From: Actinomycetota bacterium
GTDB lineage: Bacteria > Actinomycetota > Geothermincolia > Geothermincolales > RBG-13-55-18
Assembly: GCA_040757835.1 (NCBI GenBank)
Contig: JBFLWJ010000003.1
Location: 146,960 to 210,959, forward strand
DNA: 64,000 bases
Direction of reading: 5' to 3'
Made by a program: the position numbers and the translations under genes. The notes under the pieces are model-generated. The model saw only the letters and a program-made list of their open reading frames with translations, did not search any database and had not been told where the DNA came from. Positions 16,791-62,195 of the stretch are shown piece by piece (the first letter of the stretch is position 1; every line of letters starts with the position of its first letter).

Positions 16791-16808
16791 CATGCAACTG
16801 TTTTCAAG

Positions 16809-16817: not shown

Positions 16818-16832
16818 CTCCTTGCGGAACGT

Positions 16833-16908: not shown

Positions 16909-16918
16909 GAAAGAACGT

Positions 16919-29205: not shown

Positions 29206-29550
29206 GGGGGCGAAACGGCTTCGACAGGGATCGGCGGACAGCGCGGGAGCGAGCCGGGGGCCCGAGCCTCGTCAGCAATCGGGAAAACAAAATAAACGCT
29301 GACAGCGAGTTAGCACTGGCTGCGTAAGCGGCCCGTCCCTCTCCGGGGGGCCCGCGACCGGGGAAGGGGCGTCATGCAGCGGGATCACCGAGGCCCCACT
29401 CCCGTTAAGGCCGAGGGACAGCTTTCCGGGATAGCCGACGGCAGGCCTTTCGCCGGGCGCGCCGGCGGTGAAAAATAAGCGGCGAATACGCTCGTAGAGC
29501 CCACCTGGCCGGGTTTCTGGACGGGGGTTCGACTCCCCCCGCCTCCACCA
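29206..29550 (+). ncRNA. ssrA: tmRNA (ssrA)
   Basis: 5' GGGGGCGAAACGGCTTCGACAGGG pairs with 3' ...GGACGGGGGTTCGACTCCCCCCGCCTCCACCA (tRNA-like domain, T-arm GGTTCGACTCC). Internal tag ORF ...GCT GAC AGC GAG TTA GCA CTG GCT GCG TAA (...ADSELALAA*). Confidence 0.9.
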
Positions 29551-42941: not shown

Positions 42942-43428
42942 CCCCCGCACTCCCTTCTCCTCCGATAAAAAACCCATACCAGGTTCAAGGGCGGTATGGG
43001 CCTTCTTCAGGACCTATTCGAAAAGCAAATCCCGGCCCCGGGCCTTAACCCGGCGCTTACGTATTCGACTCGCATAAGCCTAGCATACGTCCAACCCTCT
43101 GCCAACAAATGGCCCGAAAAGTGAAGGCCTCGAAACCCGGCTGACCTGGTCTTTGACCCCACACTCGCCTGCCGAGCGTCTCGCAGCGGAAGGGATCCCG
43201 CGCGGGCTTTGCCCGACCGCCACTAATGCGCTTCTCCGGTTTGTTCCGGGCAGGTCTTACCCCTAAGCCGCACCATGCTCACCAACCAAGAGTTGGCTTA
43301 CGTGGGTCGTTTCGCCTGCGGCTGGCATCGACTTTCAACCACAGACCCGGGCCGAAGCCTTCCCATACATTATAAGGTGAGCGCCTGTGATATGCACATG
43401 AACCGGCCTGTGCGTCCGAGTCACGGAG

Positions 43429-45510
43429 CTATGGCATGGAGGCCGGCAGCGGCGGGTACGAGGGGTTCTCGGCCTGCCACCGCTTGTATGCGGACCAGGA
43501 GGCGTGGGGAGTGCCGTCGTAGCTGAAGAGGCCGAAATAACTCTTGTCCCAAGACCTGCCCGGTTTCTCGTCCATGTCCTTGTAGACCCAGATCTTGCGG
43601 CATCCCGCCCGCCTCAGGAGGCCGATGCCCCAGTCCCCGATGGCGTCGGCCTGCCCCTGCCCGCTGAACATATCCGGCTGGTCGTCCTTGTGGTGGAGCC
43701 AGCCTATCTCCGTGGCGGCGACCTCCTTCTCCACCCCGATGGAGCGCATCGCCTGGACCAGGTTGGCATAGAAGGGCCCCCAGTTGCCGGGGCTGCGGTA
43801 GGGGTGGACCCCTACCATATCGCAGTGCTCGTTGAAGCCCAGCATGTCCCCGGCCGCCACCTCGACCCCGGCGAGTGCTTGCAGGAGCACTTCCTTGTGC
43901 AGCGCCTCTCCCCTGCCCATGGCGAAATCGAGGCCGGCCCGCACCGGCCGCTCTCCCCCGTTCCACAGGCTGATGACGTCGCGCATGGAGAACTGGTTGT
44001 AGCCAGCCGGGAAATCCCACCGGGTGCGGGGCTCGCCCGCGCCCCGCGAAGTATACTCACCGCTGCATGAATCGCCGCAGTAGAAACGGGGCGATAACTC
44101 CGCCACCAGGGGTGCGCTGCCGCGGACTTCGATGGACGCTCCGCCCGCGCAGGATGCCCCGGTGACTCCCGGAGCCACGGACACCCTCCCGCACGACTGC
44201 GCCGCCACCTCCACGTGCCTGTTCTCGCTTGAGCCGTCCGGGAAGCGGTATACGATCTCCGCCTCGACCGCCTGCGACCCGGTGTTCAGAAGGCTCAGGA
44301 ACTCCTTTACGGTGTAGTCCCCGGAGCCGTCCTCGCAGGCCCACTCCCGGCGCGGCGAATAGGCGTCTGGCTCGCCGTTCCGCTCCTTCACGGTGCCCCC
44401 CTGGCGGTAGTAGAGCGAGCGCTCCGCTATGATGGGCCGGTCCGACGAGACCGCGATGGACACCTCGCCCAGCTTGGAGTCGTGCCTACCCACACCCAGC
44501 CCCTCGTCGAAGACGGGAAAGACCAGGCTCGACCTCGCCGGCACCCTGATATTCCGGCTCTCACTGGTGCCGTTACCGCGGAAGTATGTGATGGCCACCG
44601 CGGCTTCCTGCCGCTCCCGGTTATCAAGGGAGAGCCACATGTCGCAGCCGGACCTGGTGCAGCCCTCCGCGAAGAACCACCGGGTCCTCCCCGGGTCGAT
44701 GCCCATGAGGCCGTCCGCAAGCAGTCCGTCCCGGGAACAGACGAGGCGGAGCGTGCGTGCGGCCACGATGTCGCCGTCCGCCCTCACCGTGAGCGCGGCC
44801 TCCTGGCGGGGGCGCGAGGCATCGTCGAAGAGGCGGGTGTAGAGGCCGGTGCCCGTGTCCGGGTCGTCCGCCAGCGTGTCGAGCAGGGAGCCGCAGATGA
44901 CGATTCCCGAGGGGTCCTTTTCCTTGATGGCGGTATACGCCAGTTGCAGGAGGGGCAGGTAGTCCGTCTCCACCTGGCCCCCGAAATGATAGGTCCCGAG
45001 CAGACGGTAGGCTTCTCCATCGCTGTCCCAGCCCGGCTCGTTCCATACCTCGTAGAAGTCCACTACCGGACCGTAGCGTTCGGCGGCCGCCGCGCAGAAG
45101 TCGCGCCAGCGCCCCAGGTCCGCGGGCGGGGCCTTGTCTGCGAACTCTCCATAAGCCGCGTCCCTGGCCCATGCGGGGATGGGCCCGCCCAGGACCAGCA
45201 TTATGGACTGGCTTCCGTCCGCGAGGACCGCGCCTATCAGCTCGTCGTAGCGGCTCCAGTCAAAGGGCCCCGCCTGGGGCTGCACGTTCCTCCACCTCAC
45301 CTCGATCTTGTGGTGGCGGATCCAGCGCCTCTCCTCGAGGGGTACCTTGGCAAGGGTCCTGCTGTTGTACCCCGGCACGTCCAGGCCGAGGATGGTCCAG
45401 TCGGCTACGTCTTTCCTGCCGCCCGCACCATCGCCACCGTAGATGGGTGTTCCAGGAACGAGCAGGGCGGCGAAAAAGATGAGCACGAGCACGATGAACC
45501 GGACTCTCAT
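43429..45510 (-). CDS. secreted glycoside hydrolase, clan GH-A (GH5/GH39-like) catalytic residues with three internal ~100-aa repeats
   Basis: Signal peptide MRVRFIVLVLIFFAALLVPG; acid/base motif FYEVWNEPGW; nucleophile motif VAATEIGW ~440 residues later. The intervening region has three similar modules (RWFFAEG...LSLDN..., EWACEDG...LSLLN..., RWDFPAG...ISLWN...). Start at Met56 of ORF with GGGAGGAG SD. Confidence 0.7.
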   Translation of the reverse strand: MRVRFIVLVLIFFAALLVPGTPIYGGDGAGGRKDVADWTILGLDVPGYNSRTLAKVPLEERRWIRHHKIEVRWRNVQPQAGPFDWSRYDELIGAVLADGSQSIMLVLGGPIPAWARDAAYGEFADKAPPADLGRWRDFCAAAAERYGPVVDFYEVWNEPGWDSDGEAYRLLGTYHFGGQVETDYLPLLQLAYTAIKEKDPSGIVICGSLLDTLADDPDTGTGLYTRLFDDASRPRQEAALTVRADGDIVAARTLRLVCSRDGLLADGLMGIDPGRTRWFFAEGCTRSGCDMWLSLDNRERQEAAVAITYFRGNGTSESRNIRVPARSSLVFPVFDEGLGVGRHDSKLGEVSIAVSSDRPIIAERSLYYRQGGTVKERNGEPDAYSPRREWACEDGSGDYTVKEFLSLLNTGSQAVEAEIVYRFPDGSSENRHVEVAAQSCGRVSVAPGVTGASCAGGASIEVRGSAPLVAELSPRFYCGDSCSGEYTSRGAGEPRTRWDFPAGYNQFSMRDVISLWNGGERPVRAGLDFAMGRGEALHKEVLLQALAGVEVAAGDMLGFNEHCDMVGVHPYRSPGNWGPFYANLVQAMRSIGVEKEVAATEIGWLHHKDDQPDMFSGQGQADAIGDWGIGLLRRAGCRKIWVYKDMDEKPGRSWDKSYFGLFSYDGTPHASWSAYKRWQAENPSYPPLPASMP

Positions 45511-45591
45511 CGCAAACGCCCCACGCCCTTTTCTCCTCCCGGTTTTTGTCCTGCCGTGATTATAAGGTATATCGTCTGCCTCCGCTGATTG

Positions 45592-45684
45592 CATCGCGTA
45601 AGCGACAGCGACGCCCTGAGGGCGGCGCGGCGGTGTCCCAGCGCCTGGACATTTCCGAATGTCCAGGCCTGGCACGTGTACGTA
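45592..45684. repeat. copy C of 'S element' (short form), in the long 5' leader of the GH gene
   Basis: CATCGCGTAAGCGACAGCGACGCCCTGAGGGCGGCGCGGCGGTGTCCCAGCGCCTGGACATTTCCGAATGTCCAGGCCTGGCACGTGTACG. Confidence 0.7.
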
Positions 45685-45970
45685 CGGTGATAGTGGCCCG
45701 GGAAACTACCAGGTCGGCCGAAACTGTGCATAGAGATGGTTCATGGATAGCGATCCCGCCCGGGTGTCGCCCATACAAACCCCCCGGCAAGCACGGCTGC
45801 TTGCGGGAAAGGTCGGCAAGCCCGGTTCGTCAAGGCGTTCGGGCGACCTCGTCTGTGCTGCCCCTTGCCCGGCGAGCAAGGTGCTCGGAGGAGCCTGCGA
45901 CGACGACCAGCCTTGTCGCCGGGCCGCTAAAACGGTATTGGAGTGAGCCCGAACGCCTCTCCGTCCCGGA

Positions 45971-46507
45971 TTACCCCGTCCCGTCGAGGTAGCCGTGCGC
46001 ACCCAACCAATCCATGAGCTTGCCCACGCTCTCGGAGGTCTCCTCGGCGCACGTGTCCAGGACCAGTTCCGGGTCTTCGGGGTCCTCGTAGGGGTCATCG
46101 ACTCCCGTGAAGTCCTTGATCTCGCCGGCCAGTGCCTTGGCCCAGAGTCCCTTGGGGTCGCGCTTCGCGCACTCTTCGGCCGGGCAGCGCACGAAGACCT
46201 CGATGAAGTCCTCGATGTCCTCCCTGATCGCCTGGCGGAAGGAGCGGTAGGGAGATATCAGTGCCACGATCACCGCCACGCCGTTGCGCGAGAGCAACTT
46301 GCTCACGTAGGCGACGCGCATGGCGTGGATCTCGCGGTCCTCCTTGCTGAAACCGAGGTCACGGCTGAGGCCTTTCCTGACCTCGTCGCCGTCCATCACC
46401 TCGACCCGCTTCCCCATGTCGCGGAGCTTTCGCTCCAGGTCGACGGCCACGGTGGTCTTGCCCGAGCCAGGAAGACCGGTCAGCCATACCACAAATCCCT
46501 TGTCCAT
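45971..46507 (-). CDS. cysC: adenylyl-sulfate kinase
   Basis: VVWLTGLPGSGKTT (P-loop), ...VIVALISPYR... typical APS kinase; 178 aa. Confidence 0.9.
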   Translation of the reverse strand: MDKGFVVWLTGLPGSGKTTVAVDLERKLRDMGKRVEVMDGDEVRKGLSRDLGFSKEDREIHAMRVAYVSKLLSRNGVAVIVALISPYRSFRQAIREDIEDFIEVFVRCPAEECAKRDPKGLWAKALAGEIKDFTGVDDPYEDPEDPELVLDTCAEETSESVGKLMDWLGAHGYLDGTG

Positions 46508-46525
46508 ACTTTTGAACCTCCCGTA

Positions 46526-47881
46526 TCAATCGCCTATCCCCAGCAGCTCCACGAAGATACCGTAGAGGTCCTGTATGGGGATGAAATCCCTGTCTATTCT
46601 CTTTCCCATATCCACCTCGGGGTGGTAGATGATGCCCACTCCCCTCCAGTCGTGCACCGCGTCGTCCGGGCCGGTGTCGTTCTCCTCCAGGTACATGGAG
46701 GGATGCCCCATGGTCCCCGCGGCCCGCCAGGAGAGGTCGTCGAAGAAGACCATGAGGTCGGGCACGTCGCCCTCGGTATGCGAGTAGACCTCGCGGGGGG
46801 TCACCGCGCGCGTGTCCCAGACCTCGCCCTGAGGCCCCCTGATCTTCCTGATCTCCTCGGCCAGCGCCTCCACCTCCGCCTCGAAGCGCTCGGGGCGGAT
46901 CACCCCCTCGGGCTCCCTGCCCTCGACGTTGAGGAAGACGCGCGCGTAATAGCCGCCCCAGCCCCAGGCCTTCGTGCGCGGCCAGTCCACCGGGGCGTCC
47001 TCGAGGCGGGTGCCCGGCTTCACCTCGCCCTGCAGGGCGAGGTAGCCCTTCTCCGCCAGCCACTGGTTGACGCAGAAGGCCCCCTTCATCCCCTTGGCCC
47101 CGTGGTCGGAGACCACCGCAACGGCGGTATCGGGCCCGGCGGCCTCAAGCAGCTCCCCGATGCCCTGGTCGAGCAGGCGGTAGTAGTCCCTGAGGGCGTC
47201 GTCGAAGGGCGTACCGGACTCGTAGAGGTGATGGGCCGGGTCCTGGTACCTCCAGAAGGCGTGCTGCACCCGGTCCAGCCCGATCTCCACCATGACGAAG
47301 AGGTCCCAGGGGTGCTCCTCAGCCAGGTAGCACGCGATCTCGAAATGCCCGGCGGTCATCTCCCGCAGGCTGGCCAGGATCTCCGCCTTGTTCTCCTTGC
47401 GGAAGGCGACGTCGGGCACGTAGGCCAGCTCCTGCTCCTCCAGCTCCACCGCCAGACCGCGGGGGTAAGTGTAGGGGCGGTCGGTGCCGGGGGTGAGGAA
47501 ACAGGAGATCATGTCGCCGTTGACCTCGTAGGGCGGGTAGGATGGCGGCACGCCGATGAGACAGCTGCGCAGGCCGGCGCCGGCTGCCCGCGCCCACAGC
47601 GGGGGCACTTGCAGGGAAGTCGAGTCGGCCACCCTGGTGTCGTTGTAGGTGCCCGGTATGCGGTTGCGGAAACCGTACATGCCCAGCTCGCCCGGTTCCT
47701 TCCCGGTGAACATGACCATCCATGCGGGGACGGTTATGGGGGGCACGCACGATTCGACCTCCCCCCACCAGCCCCCGGCGCGCAACCTCTCCAGGTTGGG
47801 GAGGAGCCCTGAATACTCGTGGAAGAGCAGGCGCGGCGAAGCGCAGTCCAGCCCGATGACCAGCAGCCGGTTCCTGGCCAT
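46526..47881 (-). CDS. alkaline-phosphatase-superfamily enzyme, NPP-type phosphodiesterase/nucleotide pyrophosphatase family (paralog 1), embedded between sat and cysC
   Basis: LLVIGLDCASPRLL (metal-site Asp), PPITVPAWMVMFTGKEPGELG (Thr-nucleophile T-x-x-P...TG motif of NPP/PF01663-like enzymes), VVSDHG (DHG metal ligand). Paralogs at 56772-58271 and 62196-63809. Confidence 0.7.
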   Translation of the reverse strand: MARNRLLVIGLDCASPRLLFHEYSGLLPNLERLRAGGWWGEVESCVPPITVPAWMVMFTGKEPGELGMYGFRNRIPGTYNDTRVADSTSLQVPPLWARAAGAGLRSCLIGVPPSYPPYEVNGDMISCFLTPGTDRPYTYPRGLAVELEEQELAYVPDVAFRKENKAEILASLREMTAGHFEIACYLAEEHPWDLFVMVEIGLDRVQHAFWRYQDPAHHLYESGTPFDDALRDYYRLLDQGIGELLEAAGPDTAVAVVSDHGAKGMKGAFCVNQWLAEKGYLALQGEVKPGTRLEDAPVDWPRTKAWGWGGYYARVFLNVEGREPEGVIRPERFEAEVEALAEEIRKIRGPQGEVWDTRAVTPREVYSHTEGDVPDLMVFFDDLSWRAAGTMGHPSMYLEENDTGPDDAVHDWRGVGIIYHPEVDMGKRIDRDFIPIQDLYGIFVELLGIGD

Positions 47882-47885
47882 GCCC

Positions 47886-49028
47886 TCACTCCACGAAGGG
47901 GTCGCCGATTTCCAGGAGCACCTCGGCCACCTCGGGGCGGAGCATCTCCGGCGGGGGCACTTTGCCCTCCACGATGAGTTCGCGCATGCGGGTACCCGAG
48001 AAGCCCACCTGGTCCTCCTTGCCGTGGGGGCAGGTCTTCTCGTTCACCACCCCGCCGCAGCGCAGGCAGTAGGAGAAGGTGTTGAAGAACACCGGCACGA
48101 TGCCCAGGTCCGGGAAGTCCTGGAAGATCTCCTGGGCGGCGAAGGGGTCGTAGAAATCGCCGACCCCGGCATGGTCCCTGCCCACGATGAAATGGGTGCA
48201 GCCGAAGTTCTTGCGCATGATCGCATGGTGGATCGCCTCGCGCGGCCCCGCGTAACGCATCTCGTACTGCAGGATGGCCATGACCGAGCGCTCCTTGAGA
48301 TAGTAGTTGTCGATTAGGGTCTGGTAGGTGGCCAGGATGGCCTCGTCGGTGAAGTCTCCTTTCTTCTTCTTGCCGATGACCGGGTTGATGAAGAGCCCGT
48401 CGGCAAAGGTGAGGGCCGTCTTCTGCACGTACTCGTGGCCGAGATGGGGAACGTTGCGCGTCTGGAACCCCACCACCTGCCTCCAGCCGAGTTCGCTGAA
48501 GAGTACCCGGGTCTCGCGCGGGCTGAGGCGGTAGCGCTCGAAAGGGCTGGACGAGAGACGGAGCAGGGTCACCGGCCCCCCAGCCAGGAGATCGCCCATG
48601 CCGCCCGTCTTGGCCACACCGGGGTGGGAAGCGTCCCGCGTGCCGTAGATGAGCTGGTCGTGGCGGTCGCGGTCCAGGGGATAGATCTCCTCCACCTCCA
48701 TCACCGCGAGCGGCCCTTCGTCCGTCTCCCACAGGGCTACCCGGTCTCCTTCCTCTATCCCGCTGTCGGGGGGAAGGTCCAGGACTATGGGCAGCGCCCA
48801 TGGGGTGTCCCCGGGCAGGCGGGCATGCTCCAGCACGCTCGCGTATTCCTCCGCGCGCAGGAAACCCTCGATGGGGCTGTATATCCCCTGGGCTATGTTC
48901 TCAACCTCGCGGGCCTGCTCCGTGTCCAGCCGCAGGCTCTTGAGGCCTCGCGCCTCCGCGCCGGCTTCACCGGCGGCATCGTCGGGAATCGTGCGGTCGA
49001 TCAAGCGACCGCCGTGGGGCAACGGCAT
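47886..49028 (-). CDS. sat: sulfate adenylyltransferase (ATP sulfurylase)
   Basis: 380 aa; FQTRNVPHLGHEY (QTRN / HxGH motifs), ...GRDHAGVG... ; PUA-like N-terminal domain. Confidence 0.9.
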   Translation of the reverse strand: MPLPHGGRLIDRTIPDDAAGEAGAEARGLKSLRLDTEQAREVENIAQGIYSPIEGFLRAEEYASVLEHARLPGDTPWALPIVLDLPPDSGIEEGDRVALWETDEGPLAVMEVEEIYPLDRDRHDQLIYGTRDASHPGVAKTGGMGDLLAGGPVTLLRLSSSPFERYRLSPRETRVLFSELGWRQVVGFQTRNVPHLGHEYVQKTALTFADGLFINPVIGKKKKGDFTDEAILATYQTLIDNYYLKERSVMAILQYEMRYAGPREAIHHAIMRKNFGCTHFIVGRDHAGVGDFYDPFAAQEIFQDFPDLGIVPVFFNTFSYCLRCGGVVNEKTCPHGKEDQVGFSGTRMRELIVEGKVPPPEMLRPEVAEVLLEIGDPFVE

Positions 49029-49038
49029 GGTCTCCTCC

Positions 49039-49272
49039 TCAATCCAGGTAGCCCAGGGAACGCAGGCGTTCCTTCACCCTCTCCTCGTCCTCGCGGGAAA
49101 AGGCCTCTTTCTCGTCTACCGCGTCCTCCGCCAGCACTTCCCTCAGCACGTACACGACGTAGCTGGATACGGAGGTGAACCCTGTCCCCTCTATGCGCTT
49201 CTTGATCTTCTCGAAGAGCGGGGTGGGGATGGAGACCGAGGTGAACTTGCTCTCCTGTTCCTTTTTCTTCAT
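49039..49272 (-). CDS. ribbon-helix-helix (CopG-like) DNA-binding protein, first gene of the sat operon
   Basis: 77 aa; KFTSVSIPTPLFEKIKKRIEGTGFTSVSSYVVYVLREVL (beta-strand/helix-helix pattern). Preceded by an AT-rich divergent promoter region. Confidence 0.6.
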   Translation of the reverse strand: MKKKEQESKFTSVSIPTPLFEKIKKRIEGTGFTSVSSYVVYVLREVLAEDAVDEKEAFSREDEERVKERLRSLGYLD

Positions 49273-49473
49273 CTTTCTCTTACACCCGACCTTTCCTTTC
49301 GCGATGTTTAACTATATATTATTATATCTAATTATTTTCAATAGCCTGTTCAGCCTGCAGCTCCTTACAAGATACGGGGGCTGCCTTTCGATTTCAACAA
49401 TTATAAGGCAAGGCCGGAGAGGAAGCTTACAGCCTCCTCGCGGCGCCGGCGAGCTGGGAGGAGTTGGGGACGG

Positions 49474-50430
49474 GTGCAGACGGCTCTCTTGATAATCCTG
49501 GTCTCCTTCTTCGCCATGAACATGGGGGCCAGCGGGTTTGCCCCCTCCATGGCCGCGGCCTATGGCGCCGGCTTCCTGGACCGCCTGTGGACGGTGCTCT
49601 TCTTCTCCCTCTTCGTGCTGCTGGGAGCGGTGGTCGCCGGGGGCAGGGTGGCGGAGACCATCTCCCACGACATCGTCCCCTCGGGTTACATGGACACCAC
49701 GGTAGCCCTCATCGTCATCACCGCGGCGACCATCTCCCTCTTCCTGGCCAACCTGCTCAAGGTGCCCCAGTCCACCAGCCAGGTGACGGTGGGGTCCCTG
49801 GTGGGCGTGGGCATCCACCTCGGGCACCTCAACGGCGCGCCCTTCAAACTCATGATCCCCCTCTGGTTCATCCTGCCCTTCGCCGCATACTCCATAACCC
49901 TTATCCTCGGCAAGTGGGCCTATCCGCGCCTGCGCAAATACGTGCTGGCTCAGAACCTCATGCGCCGCTACCGGCTGCTTCAGGCCTTCGTCATCGCCTC
50001 CTCATGTTACGCGGCCTTTTCCATCGGCTCCAACAACGTGGCCAACGCCGCCGGTCCCCTGGTTGGCGCCAATATCATAAGCGCCATGGCGGCCACGCTC
50101 TTCGTGGCCCCGTTCTTCGGCATGGGGGGTGCCGCCCTCGGGTTCGGCAACCTGGAGACGGCGGGGAAAGAGCTGACCCCCCTGGGCGTCCTCAGCGCGA
50201 CCCTGGTGAGTTTCGTGGGAGCCTCCCTGCTGCTGGTGGCCAGCGGGCTGGGCATGCCCGCCTCGGAAGTCCAGATAAAACTGGGGGCCATCTTCGCCAT
50301 TGGCGTGGTCAAGAACGGGCACGTCTTCATGTTCCGCAATCCGGCCGCACGCAGATCGGCCGTGGTCTGGGTGGTCGCGCCGGTCCTGTCGGTCGCCATC
50401 GCCTGGGGCCTGGCGCGCGTGTTCATCTGA
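49474..50430 (+). CDS. cysP: PiT-family (PHO4) anion permease, probable sulfate permease CysP
   Basis: 318-aa polytopic protein with duplicated PiT signature (NMGASGFAPSMA... and GSNNVANAAGP). Divergent from the RHH-sat operon, as in Bacillus cysP-sat-cysC. Confidence 0.7.
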   Translation: MQTALLIILVSFFAMNMGASGFAPSMAAAYGAGFLDRLWTVLFFSLFVLLGAVVAGGRVAETISHDIVPSGYMDTTVALIVITAATISLFLANLLKVPQSTSQVTVGSLVGVGIHLGHLNGAPFKLMIPLWFILPFAAYSITLILGKWAYPRLRKYVLAQNLMRRYRLLQAFVIASSCYAAFSIGSNNVANAAGPLVGANIISAMAATLFVAPFFGMGGAALGFGNLETAGKELTPLGVLSATLVSFVGASLLLVASGLGMPASEVQIKLGAIFAIGVVKNGHVFMFRNPAARRSAVVWVVAPVLSVAIAWGLARVFI

Positions 50431-50469
50431 CCAGGACGGCGGGCGGCCGGTTTAACCGGCCTGGAAGAG

Positions 50470-51360
50470 GTGATAAGATTCTCGCATCTGGCCGGGTATG
50501 CGACGCGTGAGGTGGGCTTGAACGGAACGGGAGATGATCTGCACGGCATCGCCTTGAGCATGGACGTCGAGCCGTGGTGGGCCGGTGACCTCGTGCGCGA
50601 GGGCCGCGGCGGCGGTCAGGACATCGTGGCGCCGGCCGTCGACGCCCTCCTCGGCCTCCTGGAGGGAAAGGGGGTGCGCGCCACCTTCTTCGTCCTCGGT
50701 ACGGTGGCGGAGGAAGACCCCGGCCTGGTGGAGAGGATCGCCGCCGGGGGACACGAGATAGGCTCCCACGCTTACGAACACATCAACCTCACGGAGACCA
50801 CGCGCTCCGCGTTCCTGGCGAGCGAGAAGAGGACCGTGGATATCCTGACCTCGATCTGCGGGGAGAGGCCCCTCGGGTTCCGGGCCCCCAGTTGTTCGGT
50901 GGGTCCCGGCACGCCCTGGTTCCACGAGACCCTGGAGAAAGACCTCGGCTACCGCTACAGCTCCAGCGTCTTCCCCATGCGCACTCCGCTCTACGGATAT
51001 CCCGGCACCCCCCTCGGCCCATATATCCCCGCCGGAGAGCCCGGCGGTGGACACCTGCTGGAGTTCCCCCCCACCGTCTACCGCGGGCCTCTGCTGCGCA
51101 TGCCCGTATGTGGGGGCGTGTACCTAAGGTTCCAGCCACTGTGGCTGGTCGTCCGCCTGCTGAGAAAAGTACTGCAGGAGAGACCGGCGGTGCTCTACAT
51201 CCATCCCCGCGATATCTACCCGCTGCGGGAGAAACCGCCCGGTATCGGCCTGCTCTCGCGCCTCGCGCTCTTCCACGGGGCCGGCAAGACCCTGGAAAAG
51301 ATCGCGGGGCTCCTGGACACCTTCGATTTCAAGCCCGTGAGGGAAGTGCTGTCCCTGTAG
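50470..51360 (+). CDS. polysaccharide deacetylase family protein (CE4 NodB-homology, DUF3473-type C-terminus)
   Basis: ...ATFFVLGTVAEEDPGLVERIAAGGHEIGSHAYEH (NodB His motif)...LYIHPRD...; 296 aa. Confidence 0.75.
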   Translation: MIRFSHLAGYATREVGLNGTGDDLHGIALSMDVEPWWAGDLVREGRGGGQDIVAPAVDALLGLLEGKGVRATFFVLGTVAEEDPGLVERIAAGGHEIGSHAYEHINLTETTRSAFLASEKRTVDILTSICGERPLGFRAPSCSVGPGTPWFHETLEKDLGYRYSSSVFPMRTPLYGYPGTPLGPYIPAGEPGGGHLLEFPPTVYRGPLLRMPVCGGVYLRFQPLWLVVRLLRKVLQERPAVLYIHPRDIYPLREKPPGIGLLSRLALFHGAGKTLEKIAGLLDTFDFKPVREVLSL

Positions 51361-51398
51361 CGGGGAGCACTGCCGATTTGCGCAAGGATGGTCGCCGG

Positions 51399-52370
51399 AT
51401 GAGGACGGAAGTGGCAGGACCCGCGGACATACCCGCCATCGTCGACCTCTTTAACCTGGTCTTCGGCCAGGGACGCGACGTCGACGACTGGAGGAGACTT
51501 TACTCCGGCACCCCGGCCGGCCCTCCCGTCTCCTGCGTGATCCGGGAAAGCGGGGACATCGTGGGCCACCTGGGGGCGATACCCGCATGGTATGGCAGGG
51601 GTGCTGACCGTCTGAGGGGGGCGCTCCTCGTGGACATCATGGTCCACCCGGACCGGACCCGCCGCGGCCTGGCGACACGTCTCTCCCTGGCCATGCACGA
51701 GGTCCTGGGCGAGAGCTTCGACCTGTCCTTCGGTTTCGCCAACCGGCAGGCTGTCCCCACCCATTTGAAGACGGGCATGAGCAACCTGGGAAGGGCGCCG
51801 GTATACGTCAGGTATCCGAGGCTCTCGGCGCGGCGGGAGCCGCGCGGCGGCGGGGACCTGCGCCTCAGGCCGGTCTCGCTGCACGGCCCGGAACTGGAGC
51901 TGCGGCTGGGGGAAGAGGCCTTGCCCCTGTGGCACCGCTCCCGTGACCTCGCCACCCTGAGGTGGAGATATTCCGACAGGCCGCAGGGGCGGTACGACTT
52001 TTACCTCTATGATGGTGCCGTTGCCGGCTCCGGATACATGGTCCTCGCCCGCAGAAAGATCAGGGGCCTCGATGCCGGCCTCATCATGGATATCTGGGCC
52101 GGGGAGAACGACTGGGAGGCCTGCCGCTTCATGCTCTCGCGGGCCGTGGACCTGTTGAGCGGGCAGGGCGTGCGGGTCATCGCCGCTCTTGACGTTGGCA
52201 ACCGGGCGGTGCTGTCCGCCCTGCGCAGGCTGGGCTTCTTGCGCCTGCCCCAGAGCGTCTTTCCCTCCCAGTTGAACTTCGTCTTCAAGGCCTATGGCGG
52301 CGCCGGTGTGGACATGCCCCTGCGGCGCAAGGACTGGTACCTGACCTGGGGCGATACCGACCTGGTGTAG
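51399..52370 (+). CDS. GNAT-family acetyltransferase-like protein
   Basis: Start at internal Met (MRTEVAGPADIPAIVDLFNLVFGQ...) of the longer ORF; ...HPDRTRRGLATRL... acyl-CoA-binding-like segment; ~323 aa. Confidence 0.55.
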   Translation: MRTEVAGPADIPAIVDLFNLVFGQGRDVDDWRRLYSGTPAGPPVSCVIRESGDIVGHLGAIPAWYGRGADRLRGALLVDIMVHPDRTRRGLATRLSLAMHEVLGESFDLSFGFANRQAVPTHLKTGMSNLGRAPVYVRYPRLSARREPRGGGDLRLRPVSLHGPELELRLGEEALPLWHRSRDLATLRWRYSDRPQGRYDFYLYDGAVAGSGYMVLARRKIRGLDAGLIMDIWAGENDWEACRFMLSRAVDLLSGQGVRVIAALDVGNRAVLSALRRLGFLRLPQSVFPSQLNFVFKAYGGAGVDMPLRRKDWYLTWGDTDLV

Positions 52371-52378
52371 CTACGGCC

Positions 52379-54502
52379 TCACGGCTTCTCGGATATGTCC
52401 AGCCTGCCCACCTCCACCTGCCCGGCGGACCTGTAACAGGGCAGTACGCCTATCTTCACGTACCTCGTATGCTCGCTGAGGACGATGTCGGTCTTCTCCT
52501 CGCCCCCGTGCCAGACGATGAAGTTCCTGCGTGTCCACTCGCCCGTATCCCGGTGTATCTTCATCTCCACCCTGGAGATGAGCGCCTGCGGAGAGGGCGC
52601 CGCGTACTGGTAGAAGACCAGGTATACCTGGGGCTCGCCTTCGGCGACGCGGGTGTTCATGGCTATGCGGTACCGCCGGGCAGGGTCGACCTCGATGTAG
52701 CCGCGGTTGATGAAGACCAGCGCCCCCGCGTCGTCCCGCGCCGTCACCCTCAACCTGGTGCTCGTGATATCGTCCCCATCATCCACGTGCACCGACTCGA
52801 CCTCCATGGGTTCACGGCCCTCCCACTGGAACCAGGCCCAGCCGCCGAACCGGGTGAAGCCGTTCACCACCTCGCTGTCCTCGAGCTTGGGGTCGGGGGT
52901 GGATGCGAGTACCGCGGTGTCCAGTCCTTCCGGGTCCACCGCGTAAAGGTCGAAGGCCGCGTTCCTCTCCTCCAGCACCCCGTTCAGCAACAGCGCGGCG
53001 TCGAGCGAGGACTTGTCGCGGGCCACCAGGGTGTCGGTTATGCGGAACTCCCCGAGTAGTTCCCCCCACCCGTCGGGCGCGGGGGAGGCGTAGGCCTGCT
53101 CCAGCCGTTCGTTTCTGGCGGTGATGATCTCGGGAGACGCATGCCCCTGCGTGATCGAGTAGATGTTGTAGCCGGAGATGCCCATGAGCATGTATCCCTG
53201 CACGGGATGGGCGAGCAGGTTGCGGCCCTCGCCTCCCGTCTCCATGAAGGCCTCGACCGGCGCGTAGCCGTCCTTGCCCATGATGTCCTGATAGCGCCGT
53301 GCCGTGACCACCAGCGAGGCGACGAAGAACACCCCGACCACGGCCAGGATCACCGGAATGGCCACCGCCCTCCACCTCTGCAGCCTCCATATGTCCACCC
53401 CCAGCCCCAGGGCCAGTCCGATGACCAGGGGGATACGCATCACGTACGCGAACCTCCAGTAGAACGCGATGCTCACCGGGAGCAGGAAGGAGAGGGCGAT
53501 GACCGTGAAGGCCAGGGCCCACGCCAGCAGGAAGACCCTCTCGCGTTCCTTCCGGAGCAGGAAGGGCAGGCCGATGAAGAAGAACACGGTTGCCTGGAAG
53601 AAATACCCGAATGATGAGTACCTCTCCACGGGCTCCCCGAGGGCCGAGTTCGCTCCCTGGATCGAGCCCCCGAATATGTCCCACCAGTGATAGAGCGGCC
53701 ACAGGGAGAGCAGGGCCAGGGCGGCGGGGATGAGCGAGAGCAGCAGCAGGTGCCGGCGCGTGAGCCGCTTCTCCCATGCGGCGTACACCACCACCAGGAG
53801 GACCAGGACGAGCAGGTATCCTATGCCCGTGAGCAGGTGGATGTTGAGCACCAGTACCGCCAGCAGCAACTGCAGCAGGTAGCTCTTCCAGTCCCCCTCC
53901 TTCAGGTACCTGATGTTGCGGGCCAGAGCCAGCATCATCAGGCCCATGGCCACGACCGACGCGTAGTGGGCGCAGGCGAGCAGCTCTACGAAGGAGAAGG
54001 AGTTTCCCCTGACCACCACCTCGGCGCTGCAGAGGACCAGCGAGAACATCGCCGCCAGGAAAGCGGCGCGGGAAGACCCGGAGAGGGCGCGGGTGAGGAA
54101 ATAGATGCCCGACAGAAAAAGGGATATCCCGAGGAGCCCGAATACGTAGAGGGCGGTGAAGTCGGAAGCACCGGGAACGGAGGCGATGAGCGCCATGGCC
54201 ACGTAGTTGATGCCGCTGCGTTCGTTGCCGCTGTACAGCCCCGGGAACAGGTCGGCGTCGAGGTCGTCGCCCAGACCTATACGGTCCTCGACGGTGCGCA
54301 GCATGCCCAGGTGGCCGTAGGTATCGGCCCCCGATTCACGGAAGGGCAGCCTCTCCTGGTAGAAGTAGAAGGTGTACAGGGCGGCCATGGCCAGGATGAG
54401 CGCCAGCAGCGCCAGGATATAGGGGTCGCGGCCCGCGCCGCGTCCGGCCACCACGCTCTCGTCCGCCGGCGGACCTTCCCCGTTCTCAGCCGTCCCGCGC
54501 AT
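52379..54502 (-). CDS. large polytopic membrane protein with C-terminal extracytoplasmic domain (GT-C-like glycosyltransferase / polymerase candidate)
   Basis: ~12 predicted TM segments over the first ~430 aa, then a ~280-aa soluble domain. Start uncertain (Met28 at 54502, or GTG ~54454 which avoids overlap with DUF2304 gene). Confidence 0.55.
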   Translation of the reverse strand: MRGTAENGEGPPADESVVAGRGAGRDPYILALLALILAMAALYTFYFYQERLPFRESGADTYGHLGMLRTVEDRIGLGDDLDADLFPGLYSGNERSGINYVAMALIASVPGASDFTALYVFGLLGISLFLSGIYFLTRALSGSSRAAFLAAMFSLVLCSAEVVVRGNSFSFVELLACAHYASVVAMGLMMLALARNIRYLKEGDWKSYLLQLLLAVLVLNIHLLTGIGYLLVLVLLVVVYAAWEKRLTRRHLLLLSLIPAALALLSLWPLYHWWDIFGGSIQGANSALGEPVERYSSFGYFFQATVFFFIGLPFLLRKERERVFLLAWALAFTVIALSFLLPVSIAFYWRFAYVMRIPLVIGLALGLGVDIWRLQRWRAVAIPVILAVVGVFFVASLVVTARRYQDIMGKDGYAPVEAFMETGGEGRNLLAHPVQGYMLMGISGYNIYSITQGHASPEIITARNERLEQAYASPAPDGWGELLGEFRITDTLVARDKSSLDAALLLNGVLEERNAAFDLYAVDPEGLDTAVLASTPDPKLEDSEVVNGFTRFGGWAWFQWEGREPMEVESVHVDDGDDITSTRLRVTARDDAGALVFINRGYIEVDPARRYRIAMNTRVAEGEPQVYLVFYQYAAPSPQALISRVEMKIHRDTGEWTRRNFIVWHGGEEKTDIVLSEHTRYVKIGVLPCYRSAGQVEVGRLDISEKP

Positions 54503-54890
54503 CCGCGTCGTCCCCCTCCCCGCCGTCTTCCCCCTCCGCTTCCTCCCCCACGAGGCGAAGCAGCTTCTCCTCCAGCACCGCAAGCCTCTGGACCATCCTG
54601 TTGTACCCCTTGCTCTGCCTGCTGAGCACCGCCGAGAAATGGATCATGATCCCGAAGATGAAGAGGAAGGCGAGGCCGAAGATGATGGAGGGCGGATAGT
54701 AGATCCTCAACACATCGGCCAGCTTCTGCAGGAGCGCCGGCCAGGCGCTGAGGACGATGATGGATATGCCGAGGAGGATCCAGAGTATCGCATAGCGCTC
54801 GCCCAGTGACCCCCTCCGCACCAGCTCGACGATGAGGGCGATCATCAGCAGACCGGCGACGATGCCCGTGACCGCGATATTCCAGTTCAA
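54486..54890 (-). CDS. DUF2304-family small membrane protein (GT2-associated)
   Basis: 134 aa; two-to-three TM helices, LVRRGSLGERYAILWILLGISIIVLSAWP... pattern and C-terminal coiled/acidic tail; immediately downstream of a GT2 gene. Confidence 0.7.
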   Translation of the reverse strand: MNWNIAVTGIVAGLLMIALIVELVRRGSLGERYAILWILLGISIIVLSAWPALLQKLADVLRIYYPPSIIFGLAFLFIFGIMIHFSAVLSRQSKGYNRMVQRLAVLEEKLLRLVGEEAEGEDGGEGDDADARDG

Positions 54891-54903
54891 GATGGTATAT
54901 CCT

Positions 54904-55614
54904 TCACCCGATCTTCCCCCTGCCTCTTCTCCCCCGCAACGCGCAGATCGCGACGGCGAGGGTCACCTTGCTCATATAATACACGGCGACGCCCGTGTTT
55001 ATCACCGATTTGCCGCTCTCCCTCCGCAGGGAGTCTATGGGGACCTCCTCCACCGTGAACCCCTCGAGGTTCGACATCATCAGCGCCTCTACCTCGGGGA
55101 AGTCGTCCGGATAGTCGCGGGCGAAGGCCTCCAAGGCCCGGCGGCCGTATCCCCGGAAGCCGCAGGTGGCGTCCGTGATGTGGTAGGAGGTAAGCCGGTT
55201 GACCAGCCAGGACAGGAACCTGTTGCCGACGAGCCTCGCGCTCCAACCCCCGCCATTGCGGCCGTTAAAGTAACGGCTCCCGATGACCAGGTCCGCCTGC
55301 TTCTCCCGCAGGGACTCGAGGAGCAGGGGGATGTCGGCGGGATCGTGCTGGCCGTCTCCATCCATCCTGATGACGAAGTCGTATCCCTCCTCGGCGGCCA
55401 CCTGGAGACCGGCCTGCTCCGCCACCCCTATGCCCGCGTTGAAGGCTAGGGACAGGCACCTCGCCCCGGCCCGCACCGCCCTTTCCCGCGTGCCGTCCTC
55501 GCTGCCGTCATCCACGACCAGCACTTCGGCGTCCAGCTCGCGCCGGACCTCGGAGACGACCCTCTCGATGCTGTCCTCCTCGTTATGGGCGAGGATCACG
55601 ACCAGCGTGTTCAA
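54904..55614 (-). CDS. GT2-family glycosyltransferase (polyprenyl-phosphate sugar synthase-like)
   Basis: LVVILAHNEEDSIE...VLVVDDGSEDGT...DGDGQHDP (DxD/DGD motifs). Start assigned to TTG after GGAGGCGGAAGGG SD. Confidence 0.8.
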   Translation of the reverse strand: MNTLVVILAHNEEDSIERVVSEVRRELDAEVLVVDDGSEDGTRERAVRAGARCLSLAFNAGIGVAEQAGLQVAAEEGYDFVIRMDGDGQHDPADIPLLLESLREKQADLVIGSRYFNGRNGGGWSARLVGNRFLSWLVNRLTSYHITDATCGFRGYGRRALEAFARDYPDDFPEVEALMMSNLEGFTVEEVPIDSLRRESGKSVINTGVAVYYMSKVTLAVAICALRGRRGRGKIG

Positions 55615-56609
55615 CCCTTCCGCCTCTCCTTCATACCCTGACCCGGTGCGCCCCGCCTTGCGAGCAGGCTTATGAAGGATGCCCGGGCTACCCTCGCGGC
55701 GTAGGCGCACCTGGCGCCGGTGGCGTCGTCCCCGCGCCTCGAGATGAACAGGGCCCCCAGCACCGCGGCAGCCGCCGCCGAGCCGGCGCAGATGAGGGCG
55801 CGGATGATATACGAATGCACCGGGCTGAAGTACTTCCTCTGAAAGTAGTCGATCCCGTCCACGTAAATCCTGGCCCGGGTATAGCCTTTCTGCTCGCCGA
55901 AGACCTGGATGCCGGACCGGTTCCCGTAGTGCGTTATCTCCACCCCGGGCAGATACACCGTCTTCCAGCCCGCCCTCTTGACGCGGTAGCACAGGTCCAT
56001 ATCCTCCCCGTACAGGAAGAGGCCTTCGTCAAGGAGGCCCACCTCCTCCAGCGCTCTGGCGCGCACCAGGGCGCAGGCGGTATAGACCCAGTCCACCTCG
56101 ATGGGACAACGGCCGTCGCCGGCCGGGTCGGTGGACATCCCGAACATGCTGGATCCCAGGCCGCCCAGGAGGACCAGCAGGTAGAGCAGGGCGTGCCTTG
56201 CGTCCAGCAGGGTGAAATGGAAGCAGCTCTGCTGATAATCCCCGTCCTCGCCCACCATCCTGGGACCGACGATGGCGGCATCTGCATGTGACTCCATGTA
56301 CTCGTACATGCCGCGCAGGGCCCCGGCCCCGACCACCGTATCCGGGTTGAGCAGCAATATGTAAGGGGCGGAGGACATCCTGATCCCGCGGTTGGTGCCG
56401 CGGGAATACCCCACGTTCTCCTCGTTTACGGCCAGCGCCACCTGCGGGAACTTCTCCCTGACCATCTCCGCCGATCCGTCCCCGGAGGCGTTGTCCACCA
56501 CGATGACCTCCAGGTCAAGGCCGTCCGCATGGGCGAGCAGGGAGCGCAGGCAGTCATGCAGCAGATCCCTGGTCTTGTAGTTGAGCGCCACTACGCTGAT
56601 GTCGGGCAT
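55611..56609 (-). CDS. GT2-family glycosyltransferase with C-terminal TM segment
   Basis: Start at Met39 (MPDISVVALNYKTRDLL...), VIVVDNASGDGS, ...LYGEDMDLCYR... (GT2 motifs). Confidence 0.8.
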   Translation of the reverse strand: MPDISVVALNYKTRDLLHDCLRSLLAHADGLDLEVIVVDNASGDGSAEMVREKFPQVALAVNEENVGYSRGTNRGIRMSSAPYILLLNPDTVVGAGALRGMYEYMESHADAAIVGPRMVGEDGDYQQSCFHFTLLDARHALLYLLVLLGGLGSSMFGMSTDPAGDGRCPIEVDWVYTACALVRARALEEVGLLDEGLFLYGEDMDLCYRVKRAGWKTVYLPGVEITHYGNRSGIQVFGEQKGYTRARIYVDGIDYFQRKYFSPVHSYIIRALICAGSAAAAAVLGALFISRRGDDATGARCAYAARVARASFISLLARRGAPGQGMKERRKG

Positions 56610-56771
56610 CGTCCCCCTGCTCTCTCCGCCATAGGGTCCGTCCGGCTGCTGCGGATGGTTATACGCGGTTCGACGGTCCTCTGAGCACATACCAATTCTA
56701 CGCACGCGCGGTGCATCGGGCAATCGCGCCGCCGCCGGCCGCGGCTCGCGCCCGCACGGTCAACCGGGCCA

Positions 56772-58271
56772 TCAGAGAAGGGACTTCCCGTCCATCGCCG
56801 GTGGTCCCTCAACCCCCATGAAATCGAGGACGGTGGGAGCGATGTCCTCGATGCTGCCGTCCCCCGCGCCCGCATCGATGCCGGGGCCCCGCAATACGAT
56901 CATCCCCTCCCGGCGGTGGTCTGCACGGGTGAGCGGGAGCACGAGCCGTCCCTCGTCACCTATCACCCCCTGGGTGGTCCACCCCTCCACCATCTCCACC
57001 ATGAGGTCGGGGGCCCAGTCCACTTTGGGTCCCGAGTAGATCTCCTCCCTGCTCCGGACCGCGCTCACCGGCCTCTCTCCCGACGCAACGTCCACATAGC
57101 CCTCGAGACCCCGTCGCAGTTCCTTGATGAGGGATTCCCTCTCCCCGCCCACGCCCACGCTCCCCCGGGGGCGGTCGGAGGTGTTCAGGTAGATGCCATG
57201 GTTGGGCAGGGCGATGGCCCGGGTCGCGGCCCAATCGACCCGGTCCGCCTGGATGTAATCGACCACCGAGGCGTGTGAGCCCGAGCCCCTGCCCTCCGGC
57301 ACCATCCTCCTCAGGGAGCGGGGGGCGTAACGGGAGGCGGCCGCGAGCAGCCCGACCCGATCCAGGGCGGCGGCTATCCTCTTCTGGTTGATACCCATGC
57401 CGGAGAGCCCGCCCAGGGATCTTACCTTGAGGTAACCCTCCCCGATGAGCCAGTTATTGAGGAGGAAGCCCGACTTGCACGGCGCGAAACCGTGGTCCGA
57501 GAGGACCATGAGCAGGTCGCTCGCTCCCACGTACCGCTCCACCAGCGCACCGATATGGCCGTCCAGCTTCTCGAAGAAGGCGGCGGTCAAGGCGTGCAGG
57601 CCGCCCCTCTCCGGTTCCAGGGGCAGGCCGGTGTGGTTGAGGAGGTTGTGGCTCACGCGGTCCGCGAGGTGGAAGACGCCGAGGAAGAAATCACAGGGGT
57701 GCCCGGAGAGCAGGGCCTCGAAGACGCGGTGGCGCTTGTCCATCGCCGCCTCGCATTCCCTGATGGTCTTCTCGGGCCCCATGACCGAAAACCCCTTCGG
57801 CTCGATGACGTAGCCCCCGGCGGCGGCGTCTATGGCGGCGCGCATGGATGCGGGCCAGGTGTGGAGGTCGCGCTCGTCGGCGAGGAAACCCGGGATCATG
57901 TAGCCGTTGATCCGCCTGGGCTCGCGCACCACGGGGATGTTGAAAGCCCCGCAGGAGAGCCCGCGCTCGCCGAGGATGTCCCATATCTCCGGCAAGGCGG
58001 GGTCGCGGTGATAGTCGTAGTAGCTCAGGGCGTACGAGGCCGGCGCGAGGTTGAGGAAGCCGAAGGCCCCGATCCAGCCCGGGTTCCTCCCACTGGCCAG
58101 GGTGTTCCAGGCGGGACAGGTGATATAAGGGATAGTGCTCGCCAGGACGCCGTGGCGCCCCTCGGAGGCCAATGCCCTCAAGGCCGGCATACGCCCGGCC
58201 TCCATGAGCGGGGACATCACTTTCCAGGTCCCGCCGTCGATCCCGATGATGAATACCCTTCCCTTGGCCAT
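56772..58271 (-). CDS. alkaline-phosphatase-superfamily NPP-type enzyme (paralog 2)
   Basis: VFIIGIDGGTW, IPYITCPAWNTLASGRNPG (Thr-nucleophile motif), VLSDHGF. Confidence 0.7.
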   Translation of the reverse strand: MAKGRVFIIGIDGGTWKVMSPLMEAGRMPALRALASEGRHGVLASTIPYITCPAWNTLASGRNPGWIGAFGFLNLAPASYALSYYDYHRDPALPEIWDILGERGLSCGAFNIPVVREPRRINGYMIPGFLADERDLHTWPASMRAAIDAAAGGYVIEPKGFSVMGPEKTIRECEAAMDKRHRVFEALLSGHPCDFFLGVFHLADRVSHNLLNHTGLPLEPERGGLHALTAAFFEKLDGHIGALVERYVGASDLLMVLSDHGFAPCKSGFLLNNWLIGEGYLKVRSLGGLSGMGINQKRIAAALDRVGLLAAASRYAPRSLRRMVPEGRGSGSHASVVDYIQADRVDWAATRAIALPNHGIYLNTSDRPRGSVGVGGERESLIKELRRGLEGYVDVASGERPVSAVRSREEIYSGPKVDWAPDLMVEMVEGWTTQGVIGDEGRLVLPLTRADHRREGMIVLRGPGIDAGAGDGSIEDIAPTVLDFMGVEGPPAMDGKSLL

Positions 58272-58428
58272 GTGTTTTCTCATCTCCCGCGCTCCCGCGC
58301 CGCCGGCGGAGGTTGTTAGTGATTATACGCCACTCCCCGGCCGTGGACCTCCAGGCCGGATGATACCATGGATACGCGGGACCCGTTATAACGCCGTGTC
58401 TTTTGGGTTATAGTATCGACACGGGTCC

Positions 58429-62143: not shown

Positions 62144-62195
62144 GCTTCCTCGATCCGTGAGATAGAGAACCGTGGCTATGGTGCCGTCAGGGGTC

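Follow-up and report, generated by a model that had tools for sequence, protein, structure and literature searches.

A predicted PslG-like clan GH-A glycosidase with a barrel interrupted by ASRAH/DUF5719 β-sandwich units in an uncultured Actinomycetota genome

Two kinds of enzyme come close to the gene described here. One is PslG of Pseudomonas aeruginosa (CAZy family GH39; PDB 4zn2, 5bx9, 9g17), a retaining endo-β-glucosidase encoded in an exopolysaccharide operon, the Psl operon, with Glu165 as acid/base and Glu276 as nucleophile (PMC11912335). These catalytic glutamates are 111 residues apart and no insertion separates them. The other comprises glycoside hydrolases (GH) whose catalytic barrel is interrupted by β-sandwich modules. 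In a 64,000-nucleotide stretch of DNA from an Actinomycetota bacterium (contig JBFLWJ010000003.1 of assembly GCA_040757835.1; the whole stretch is called the window in the following) we analysed a gene whose predicted product, an exported clan GH-A glycosidase, appears to combine both: a PslG-like TIM barrel split between its catalytic glutamates by units of the ASRAH/DUF5719 type. The window protein and PslG share only about 22% identity, and the Pfam GH39 cutoff is not reached.

Among the interrupted enzymes, EngU, a β-glucanase of family GH148, is like the window protein in that a GH-A barrel is split between the catalytic glutamates by a β-sandwich module (PMC5725463). In the case of EngU, however, this is one family 4 carbohydrate-binding module (CBM4) between β4 and α4, on the catalytic face, with binding shown experimentally and in a degradative context (PMC5725463), whereas the window family has another type of barrel and carries ASRAH units between α5 and β6, in 0-3 extra copies and with binding that is predicted only. 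No insert-less member of GH148 is known (PMC5725463), and the shortest close-family members here likewise keep one unit. The GH10 enzymes Xyn10C/Pm25 of Prevotella/Bacteroides are alike in having a GH-A barrel interrupted by tandem β-sandwiches, one to three among homologues (PMC7848910). Their insert consists of two CBM4 between β3 and α3, before the acid/base, and they belong to xylan utilisation loci with a susC/susD context (PMC7848910), whereas in the window family the insert lies between the two catalytic residues. SusG also has a carbohydrate-binding β-sandwich within its glycosidase catalytic module (cited in PMC7848910), but it is a GH13 α-amylase of clan GH-H with a single CBM58 inserted in the existing loop domain B. 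The GH128 'disruptive CBM' (PMC10956234) was dropped as a comparison, since it is about curdlan disruption and not about an inserted module.

Regarding the inserted units, ASRT/TM1070 proteins (PDB 2ii7, 1nc7) are stand-alone cytoplasmic tetramers (PMC2739507). ASRAH domains are predicted sugar binders, and actinobacterial surface lipoproteins and amidase fusions containing them were noted by de Souza, Iyer and Aravind (PMC2739507). The text of that 2009 paper makes no mention of glycosyl/glycoside hydrolases, of 'inserted' or of a TIM barrel, and a full-text literature search for 'DUF5719' returned no paper. In DUF5719 proteins and amidase fusions the units stand in series, whereas in the window family they are nested in another domain and bracketed by what is most likely a split, permuted unit. 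Altogether, what appears new at this locus is a PslG-like barrel below the Pfam GH39 and GH5 thresholds, an ASRAH insert in place of an established CBM, an insertion site in an α-β loop, the probable split flank, the homogenised units found in the family and a biosynthetic context.

The 693-residue product is identical to an NCBI 'Actinomycetota bacterium' protein (P0001) from a metagenome-assembled genome (MAG), with the same length and the same start, and the GC content at third codon positions (GC3) in this frame is 0.85. A 748-residue reading from an upstream GTG at 45675 was rejected, because the homologue N-termini and the NCBI start both point to the methionine of MRVRF. Just upstream of this start codon, a 1-nt indel separates the window from the orthologous locus L006. 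The hydrophobic N-terminus, which a first-pass annotation made from the sequence alone had called a signal peptide, proved to be a real and family-wide feature: 51 of 56 homologues begin with a comparable segment, with a lipobox-like Cys in some, and residues 2-16 form a helix in the structural model described below. The protein is therefore predicted to be exported. At the extreme C-terminus, all homologues conserve a proline-rich tail of the form Y-P-x-L-P-x-S-(L/W)-P (residues ~681-693; 43432-43470, reverse strand), which could serve barrel packing or act as a sorting or processing signal.

The main evidence for a single barrel comes from structure prediction and profile comparison. AlphaFold2 (AF2), run with the family alignment, gave a model with a mean predicted local distance difference test score (pLDDT) of 81.9 and a predicted TM-score of 0.67, with barrel segments mostly above a pLDDT of 90. 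An all-β region (residues 238-552) lies between the two sets of barrel strands. E158, in WNEPGW (residues 156-161), stands just after strand 152-155, and E601, in ATEIGW (residues 599-604), lies within strand 596-602. When the model was searched with Foldseek, the top matches were PslG entries (E 6e-9; TM-score 0.61 normalised to PslG), with an alignment over 657 columns that spans the insert. As 286 residues are aligned and only about 200 residues lie N-terminal of the insert, both halves are required for the barrel. PslG was also the best solved relative of the 38-member family profile among PDB sequences (E 2.5e-5), its WNEP aligning to the WNEP of the family and its TEWGW to the family's TEvGW. 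In addition, phmmer against PDB sequences matched the GH39 xylosidase 4ekj (E 4e-6), both around NEP and at the extreme C-terminus.

Thus, the proposal of the first-pass annotation, a GH5/GH39-like clan GH-A barrel interrupted by inserted modules, is supported by model, Foldseek and profile alignment alike. The two motifs, NEP and TEIG, which it had allowed might lie outside one barrel, fall within the same predicted barrel, and their stated distance of about 440 residues was borne out (E158 and E601 are 443-444 residues apart). The normal spacing, which had been given as ~100-150 residues, can be narrowed to ~111-113 for this lineage, as seen in PslG and in the insert-less relative P0219. Judged from model and sequence motifs, the protein has the traits of clan GH-A, namely a TIM barrel with a predicted acid/base Glu at the end of β4 and a predicted nucleophile Glu at the end of β7, and is an interrupted member of the clan, with whole accessory modules lying within the sequence of a barrel that is still complete. 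As a whole, we hold an architecture of one GH-A barrel split by an ASRAH insert to be very probable.

Conservation was counted over 38 aligned homologues that are 34-69% identical to the window protein. N157 and E158 are invariant (38/38), and E601, H569, Y571 and W641 are each found in all but two (36/38). That the catalytic residues of clan GH-A are conserved as a complete set speaks for an active enzyme, which would be expected to hydrolyse its substrate by retaining double displacement. The GH39 enzymes XynB and PslG carry a C-terminal β-sandwich accessory domain packed on the barrel. The window protein ends 12 residues past helix α8 (670-681 of 693) and is without such a domain, its only β-sandwiches being the inserted ASRAH units. 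The coordinates of the protein parts and of the surrounding features are collected in the table.

Table. Features of the glycosidase gene and its surroundings in the window (functional assignments are predictions)
Feature	Position	Strand	Basis or remark
Interrupted PslG-like clan GH-A glycosidase, complete coding sequence	43429..45510	-	693 aa + stop
N-terminal signal peptide or signal anchor, residues 1-25	45436..45510	-	MRVRFIVLVLIFFAALLVPGTPIYG; Kyte-Doolittle maximum 3.15
N-terminal barrel part	44815..45408	-	AF2 strands 40-44, 66-72, 102-108, 152-155, 203-206, helix 222-228; GH39 4ekj and PslG matches
N157-E158-P159, predicted general acid/base, end of β4	45034..45042	-	aligned to PslG WNEP
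Leading C-terminal fragment of ASRAH unit, residues 234-260	44731..44811	-	last two strands ('DVSIKV...AERPMYF') of canonical unit; weak HMM match 234-254, clear in homologues
ASRAH/DUF5719 unit 1, residues 278-368, full β-sandwich	44407..44679	-	unit HMM E 2.5e-36
ASRAH/DUF5719 unit 2, residues 390-476, full but degenerate	44083..44343	-	unit HMM 394-472, E 4.5e-11; TM1070/ASRT profile match covers unit 2
Trailing N-terminal fragment, residues 498-552, first five strands only	43855..44019	-	unit HMM E 8e-4; five strands 495-552 in model
C-terminal barrel part, β6-α8, residues 560-693	43432..43833	-	AF2 strands 565-568, 596-602, 639-642, pLDDT >90
H569-P570-Y571 on β6, His/Tyr pair typical of clan GH-A	43798..43806	-	aligned to HPY of PslG and P0219
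T600-E601-I602-G603, predicted nucleophile, end of β7	43702..43713	-	aligned to PslG TEWGW
Upstream intergenic region	45511..45970	-	probably promoter region
Glycan-biosynthesis and sulfate-activation cluster	45971..63809		Pfam scans, coding frames checked by GC3
cysC	45971-46507	-	upstream of glycosidase, same strand
PF01663 (type I phosphodiesterase / nucleotide pyrophosphatase family) gene	46526-47881	-	between sat and cysC
sat	47886-49028	-	upstream of glycosidase, same strand
Further PF01663 paralogues	56772-58283 and 62196-63809	-	
raiA motif RNA (RF03072), full-length	43132-43355	-	Rfam 167 bits vs gathering score 101; directly after glycosidase stop
hpf/raiA gene	42399-42977	-	downstream of raiA motif RNA

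The insertion site could be located by comparison with relatives that lack the insert. A word-index search with the N-terminal half of the protein retrieved seven proteins, three of which are distant insert-less relatives. The nearest insert-less relatives found are short proteins named 'cellulase family' or 'PslG', and P0217-P0219 carry PF00150. P0218 was named PslG by JGI, and P0219, a Mycobacterium protein of 344 aa with PF00150, PF01229 and PF02449, is annotated 'cellulase family'. In the case of P0219, ~111-113 residues separate acid/base and nucleophile, as in PslG, and hhalign of the family against it gave a probability of 98.5%. BLASTP of P0053, a family member of the shortest type, against P0219 returned two collinear segments, 82-223 to 65-192 (including NEP) and 352-418 to 217-291 (including HPY and TE.G), with 128 residues between them in P0053 vs 24 in P0219. 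The second segment is collinear with the C-terminal barrel part, the TEFG of P0219 aligning with the E601 region.

At the junction itself, the helix TYLERLYGNG of P0219 runs almost straight into β6 (ADAVAVHPY). The equivalent helix of the window protein, GLYTRLFDD (modelled at 222-228), leads into the insert, and β6 (CDMVGVHPY) resumes at residue 565. Segments and junction together place the insertion, ~330 residues long (~233-560), in the connection after helix α5 and before strand β6. In a TIM barrel, α-β loops lie on the face opposite to the catalytic β-α loops. The insert would therefore sit on the non-catalytic face. We also carried out an exhaustive search of representative proteins with the short-form profile; its 12,580 matches came mostly through the ASRAH unit alone and were uninformative on close insert-less relatives.

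To describe the insert, a hidden Markov model (HMM) was built from 36 distinct canonical units of homologues. The first-pass annotation had counted three tandem repeats of ~100 aa. That there are repeats is confirmed by this unit HMM; the count is not, since the insert consists of a fragment, two full units and another fragment. The trailing piece (498-551) matches the first 54 of the 91 HMM positions and the leading piece (234-254) only the last ~20. The aromatic W-x-F-x-x-G-type and LSL(D/L)N-type motifs that had been reported were found again at three positions, as WFFAEG at 278 with LSLDN at 293, WACEDG at 390 with LSLLN at 405, and WDFPAG at 498 with ISLWN at 513. Whether the repeats form a β-sandwich array inserted in the barrel had been left to structure prediction, and the all-β region of the AF2 model points to such an array. 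A profile was needed to detect the repeats, as neither self-BLAST of the protein nor Tandem Repeats Finder on the gene DNA found any. Unit 1 and unit 2 of the window protein are 30% identical.

Homologues carry DUF5719 (PF18986) in the insert region and also match ASRT (PF07100) there; P0008, for example, passes PF18986 at 88 bits. The window protein itself has no PF18986 or PF07100 match at E<=1. With the family profile, TM1070, a homologue of ASRT, is matched at E 7e-5 and ASRT at E 0.06. The fold that these matches and the model assign to the inserted units is the ASRT-type β-sandwich of ASRAH domains.

A further characteristic of the family concerns the two ends of the insert. The TM1070 domain begins at its W-x-F motif and ends with the A-E motif. 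Inserts of the family invariably start with two strands that correspond to the last two of a unit ('DVSIKV...PIVAERPMYF'), and the five strands at their end ('W.FAEG...TLDIN') are those with which a unit begins. Members with no full unit consist here of exactly these two flanking pieces, joined by the usual inter-unit linker, and this composition indicates one circularly permuted sandwich. When residues 232-392 (leading fragment and unit 1) were modelled separately with AF2, unit 1 reached a pLDDT of 83-96, including its own last two strands. In the same construct the leading fragment dropped to 46-64 and its strands were lost, vs values up to 88 (strand 238-260) in the full-length model. It is thus most likely, as far as the models go, that the fragments at either end of the insert come together as a single discontinuous, circularly permuted sandwich next to the barrel, and the modelling favours canonical units that are autonomous domains nested inside this split sandwich. 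A permuted register for every sandwich, combining the end of one repeat with the start of the next, was considered and set aside; the truncated construct argues against it at the level of pLDDT only.

The number of full units varies within the family. The spacing between acid/base and nucleophile was compared in 56 homologues, of which 49 fall into four classes, the other seven having no usable spacing or lying outside (e.g. P0056, 632 residues). Spacings of 218-224 residues correspond to no full unit, 325-336 to one, 437-450 (the class of the window protein) to two and 545-566 to three. Even the shortest members, with a spacing of ~220, still carry one inserted unit in the form of the two joined fragments. 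A three-unit paralogue, P0008, is encoded in the same genome as P0001, outside the window, and P0007 (three units) and P0044 (none) lie on one 63-kb contig. Exact-sequence look-ups of P0008 and of P0015 returned no record. Forms with different unit numbers can therefore coexist in one genome.

In most of the proteins, full units of one and the same chain share 75-97% identity (e.g. P0030, P0041, P0018, P0008), and the proteins are mutually only ~35-45% identical. At the DNA level, the gene of P0030 (L001, 8778-9574) contains a 321-bp tandem repeat with 92% matches. This suggests repeated recent duplication of units or their homogenisation by concerted evolution. The window protein departs from this pattern, as do its orthologues P0002 and P0003, with units 29-34% identical.

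To bound the close family, one genome from each of 185,579 species was scanned with family-specific patterns, which cover the close family only. The scan found 26 loci, all in uncultured Actinomycetota MAGs assigned to Candidatus Solincola, Ca. Geothermincola, Geothermincolales and Anoxymicrobiaceae; Ca. Solincola belongs to the class Ca. Geothermincolia.

Upstream of the glycosidase, beyond the sulfate-activation genes, the cluster contains genes for a PiT-type transporter, a carbohydrate esterase family 4 deacetylase, a GNAT protein, a 734-aa protein, DUF2304, two family 2 glycosyltransferases (GT2), a PF01663 protein, a methyltransferase, a family 4 glycosyltransferase (GT4), a Wzx-like flippase and a third PF01663 protein. 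In the case of the 69%-identical orthologue P0002 (L006), the synteny is the same as in the window. The 62%-identical orthologue P0003 (L008) has cysC, a PF00685 sulfotransferase, GT2, PF01663 and GT4 genes directly upstream, and more distant members are flanked by GT2, GT4 and UDP-glucose dehydrogenase genes. Overall, GT2 and/or GT4 homologues lie within 6 kb in 24 of the 26 species-representative loci, a strong association within this one class. No sugar-uptake or catabolic genes adjoin the gene in any locus examined.

Some further observations on these clusters can be added. The PF01663 gene wedged between the PAPS-synthesis genes for ATP sulfurylase and APS kinase keeps this arrangement in L006 and L007. 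The 734-aa open reading frame (52379-54583, reverse strand) has a GC3 of 0.89 and no Pfam match, and a 719-aa gene, also without Pfam match, is similarly placed in L008 (1369-3528). Glycosyltransferase clusters holding distant family members also encode a protein of 815-933 aa with DUF5719 units and β-propeller/FG-GAP repeats, a second exported ASRAH protein (L001 593-3376, L002 986-3433 and L005 178-2979, all on the reverse strand).

By analogy with PslG and from the gene context, the substrate would be a glycan of the cell's own making. The reading that we favour, and regard as reasonably probable, is that of an exported retaining β-glycosidase, with PslG as its nearest characterised relative, that processes the secreted glycan of the cell, the repeats being binding or spacer modules. 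A physiological role like that of PslG, argued by analogy, is one towards which we lean slightly. The exported enzyme would cleave or trim the nascent, matrix, secreted or envelope polysaccharide of its own cell, which in this organism might be sulfated. Being predicted sugar binders, the ASRAH units would tether the catalytic domain to the polymer or envelope, or space it relative to them, from the non-catalytic face. Several points weigh against this proposal. Pfam and NCBIfam scans of the window protein found no glycosidase domain above threshold, with GH42 sub-threshold only, and on a homologue the Pfam GH39 model scores 15.7 bits vs a cutoff of 26. PF00150 (Cellulase, GH5) has no match on the window protein; homologue P0041 reaches 25.1 vs a cutoff of 23.5, in the N-terminal half only. 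A gap of 460 nt separates the gene from the upstream cluster, and the raiA RNA and hpf follow it, so that co-regulation with the cluster is only a possibility. The context shared across loci may partly be synteny by descent within one class, and all family relatives come from uncultured MAGs. Sugar binding by ASRAH domains is itself a prediction. Much of the family consensus is gone from unit 2 and from both fragments of the window protein (WACEDG, AELSP, AARTL), and this loss suits spacers better than binding modules. Both the opposite-face position and the pairing of the fragments were deduced from pLDDT, DSSP and the general topology of TIM barrels.

The same evidence bears on other explanations. 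The protein might be a nutritional glycanase acting on exogenous polysaccharides such as β-glucan, xylan or mannan, its repeats being classical substrate-targeting CBMs as in GH10 Xyn10C and GH148 EngU. We consider this unlikely, as the genes next to it code for glycosyltransferases, a flippase, UDP-glucose dehydrogenase and sulfate activation, with nothing for sugar uptake or catabolism adjoining in the loci examined; moreover, the closest solved relative by profile and fold is an enzyme of a biosynthesis operon, and the insert lies in an α-β loop away from the cleft, unlike the CBM4 insertions in β-α loops. Still less probable, in our view, is a remodelling enzyme of the envelope, a hydrolase or transglycosylase for a cell-wall glycopolymer or S-layer glycan, with the ASRAH units as anchors to peptidoglycan or wall polymers. 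Retaining GH-A enzymes can transglycosylate, and some homologues have the lipobox-like Cys. ASRAH/DUF5719 units also occur in fusion with N-acetylmuramoyl-L-alanine amidases and with further wall enzymes (P0059-P0063; PMC2739507). However, this explanation differs from the processing of a secreted glycan only in the target polymer, and the Wzx-type flippase, GT2 and GT4 fit either. Two more readings were weighed. A non-enzymatic surface protein, a lectin or structural protein with the barrel as a scaffold for binding and the repeats forming a surface layer, would suit a repeat-rich, exported protein whose hosts are rich in DUF5719 proteins, as the many profile matches obtained through the repeat show; the presence of the full GH-A set (N-E on β4, H-x-Y on β6, E on β7 and W on β8) in 36-38 of the 38 homologues makes it very improbable. 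That NEP and TEIG coincide by chance in separate domains would agree with the lack of a glycosidase domain above threshold in the scans of the window protein, but is contradicted by the barrel model and by the Foldseek and profile alignments, and we give it hardly any credence.

Returning to the processing of the cell's own glycan, a more far-reaching version can be formulated, which we put forward only tentatively and regard as rather doubtful in its entirety. The gene would represent a clan GH-A family not classified before, or else a deep subfamily of GH39, found only in uncultured Geothermincolia-type Actinomycetota and directed at their own exopolysaccharide, possibly sulfated in this case. 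ASRAH/DUF5719 would be a new CBM family, arranged as a nested insertion: a split, circularly permuted sandwich in an α-β loop would enclose 0-3 further units that recombination adds, removes and homogenises, and copy number would tune reach or avidity from the non-catalytic face.

The region upstream of the gene had been described as a long structured leader. This was not supported: the 460 nt fold only modestly better than shuffles (z = -2.37), no Rfam family was found for the region (a permissive threshold gave only a chance-level miRNA match), and the alignment with the orthologous L006 region is confined to blocks, including TTATAAT (45559-45564) and GGAGGAG (45533-45539), which in L006 lie at ~6040-6090. 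A scan of the region for consensus promoters and terminators returned nothing relevant. A promoter with a short 5' untranslated region is probably the simpler reading. The distance from GGAGGAG to the ATG, 22 nt, is unusually long.

On the other side of the gene, the order glycosidase, raiA RNA, hpf recurs in L006, L007 and L008. Downstream of hpf follow two adjacent HD-domain genes of the HD_5 / HD-GYP type (39325-42323, reverse strand), conserved in L006-L008, and secA is found downstream together with hpf and these genes. The HD-GYP-type protein of 538 aa has a long N-terminal region that is predicted to span the membrane. Elsewhere in the window, a low-GC island at ~20200-21500 (0.40-0.50 vs ~0.64 elsewhere) lies beside tRNA genes (19958-20032, reverse; 20095-20167, forward); with its small open reading frames (20177-20590 and 20587-21084, both reverse) it may be a small horizontally acquired insert. 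A tmRNA gene (29206-29550, forward; Rfam 159.5 bits) and more tRNA genes at 16435-16992 were also detected.

In conclusion, the locus overturns nothing, as interrupted GH-A barrels and PslG-type enzymes were already established. It gives a first handle on DUF5719/ASRAH, a widespread unit in the representative proteins searched, which here stands in a defined enzymatic context. The natural series of none, one, two and three full units is a ready-made experiment on how a TIM barrel tolerates insertions and could be useful for protein engineering. For the organisms themselves, an uncultivated and deep class of actinobacteria, the finding is a lead to PslG-like matrix-processing enzymes and perhaps also to sulfated exopolysaccharides.

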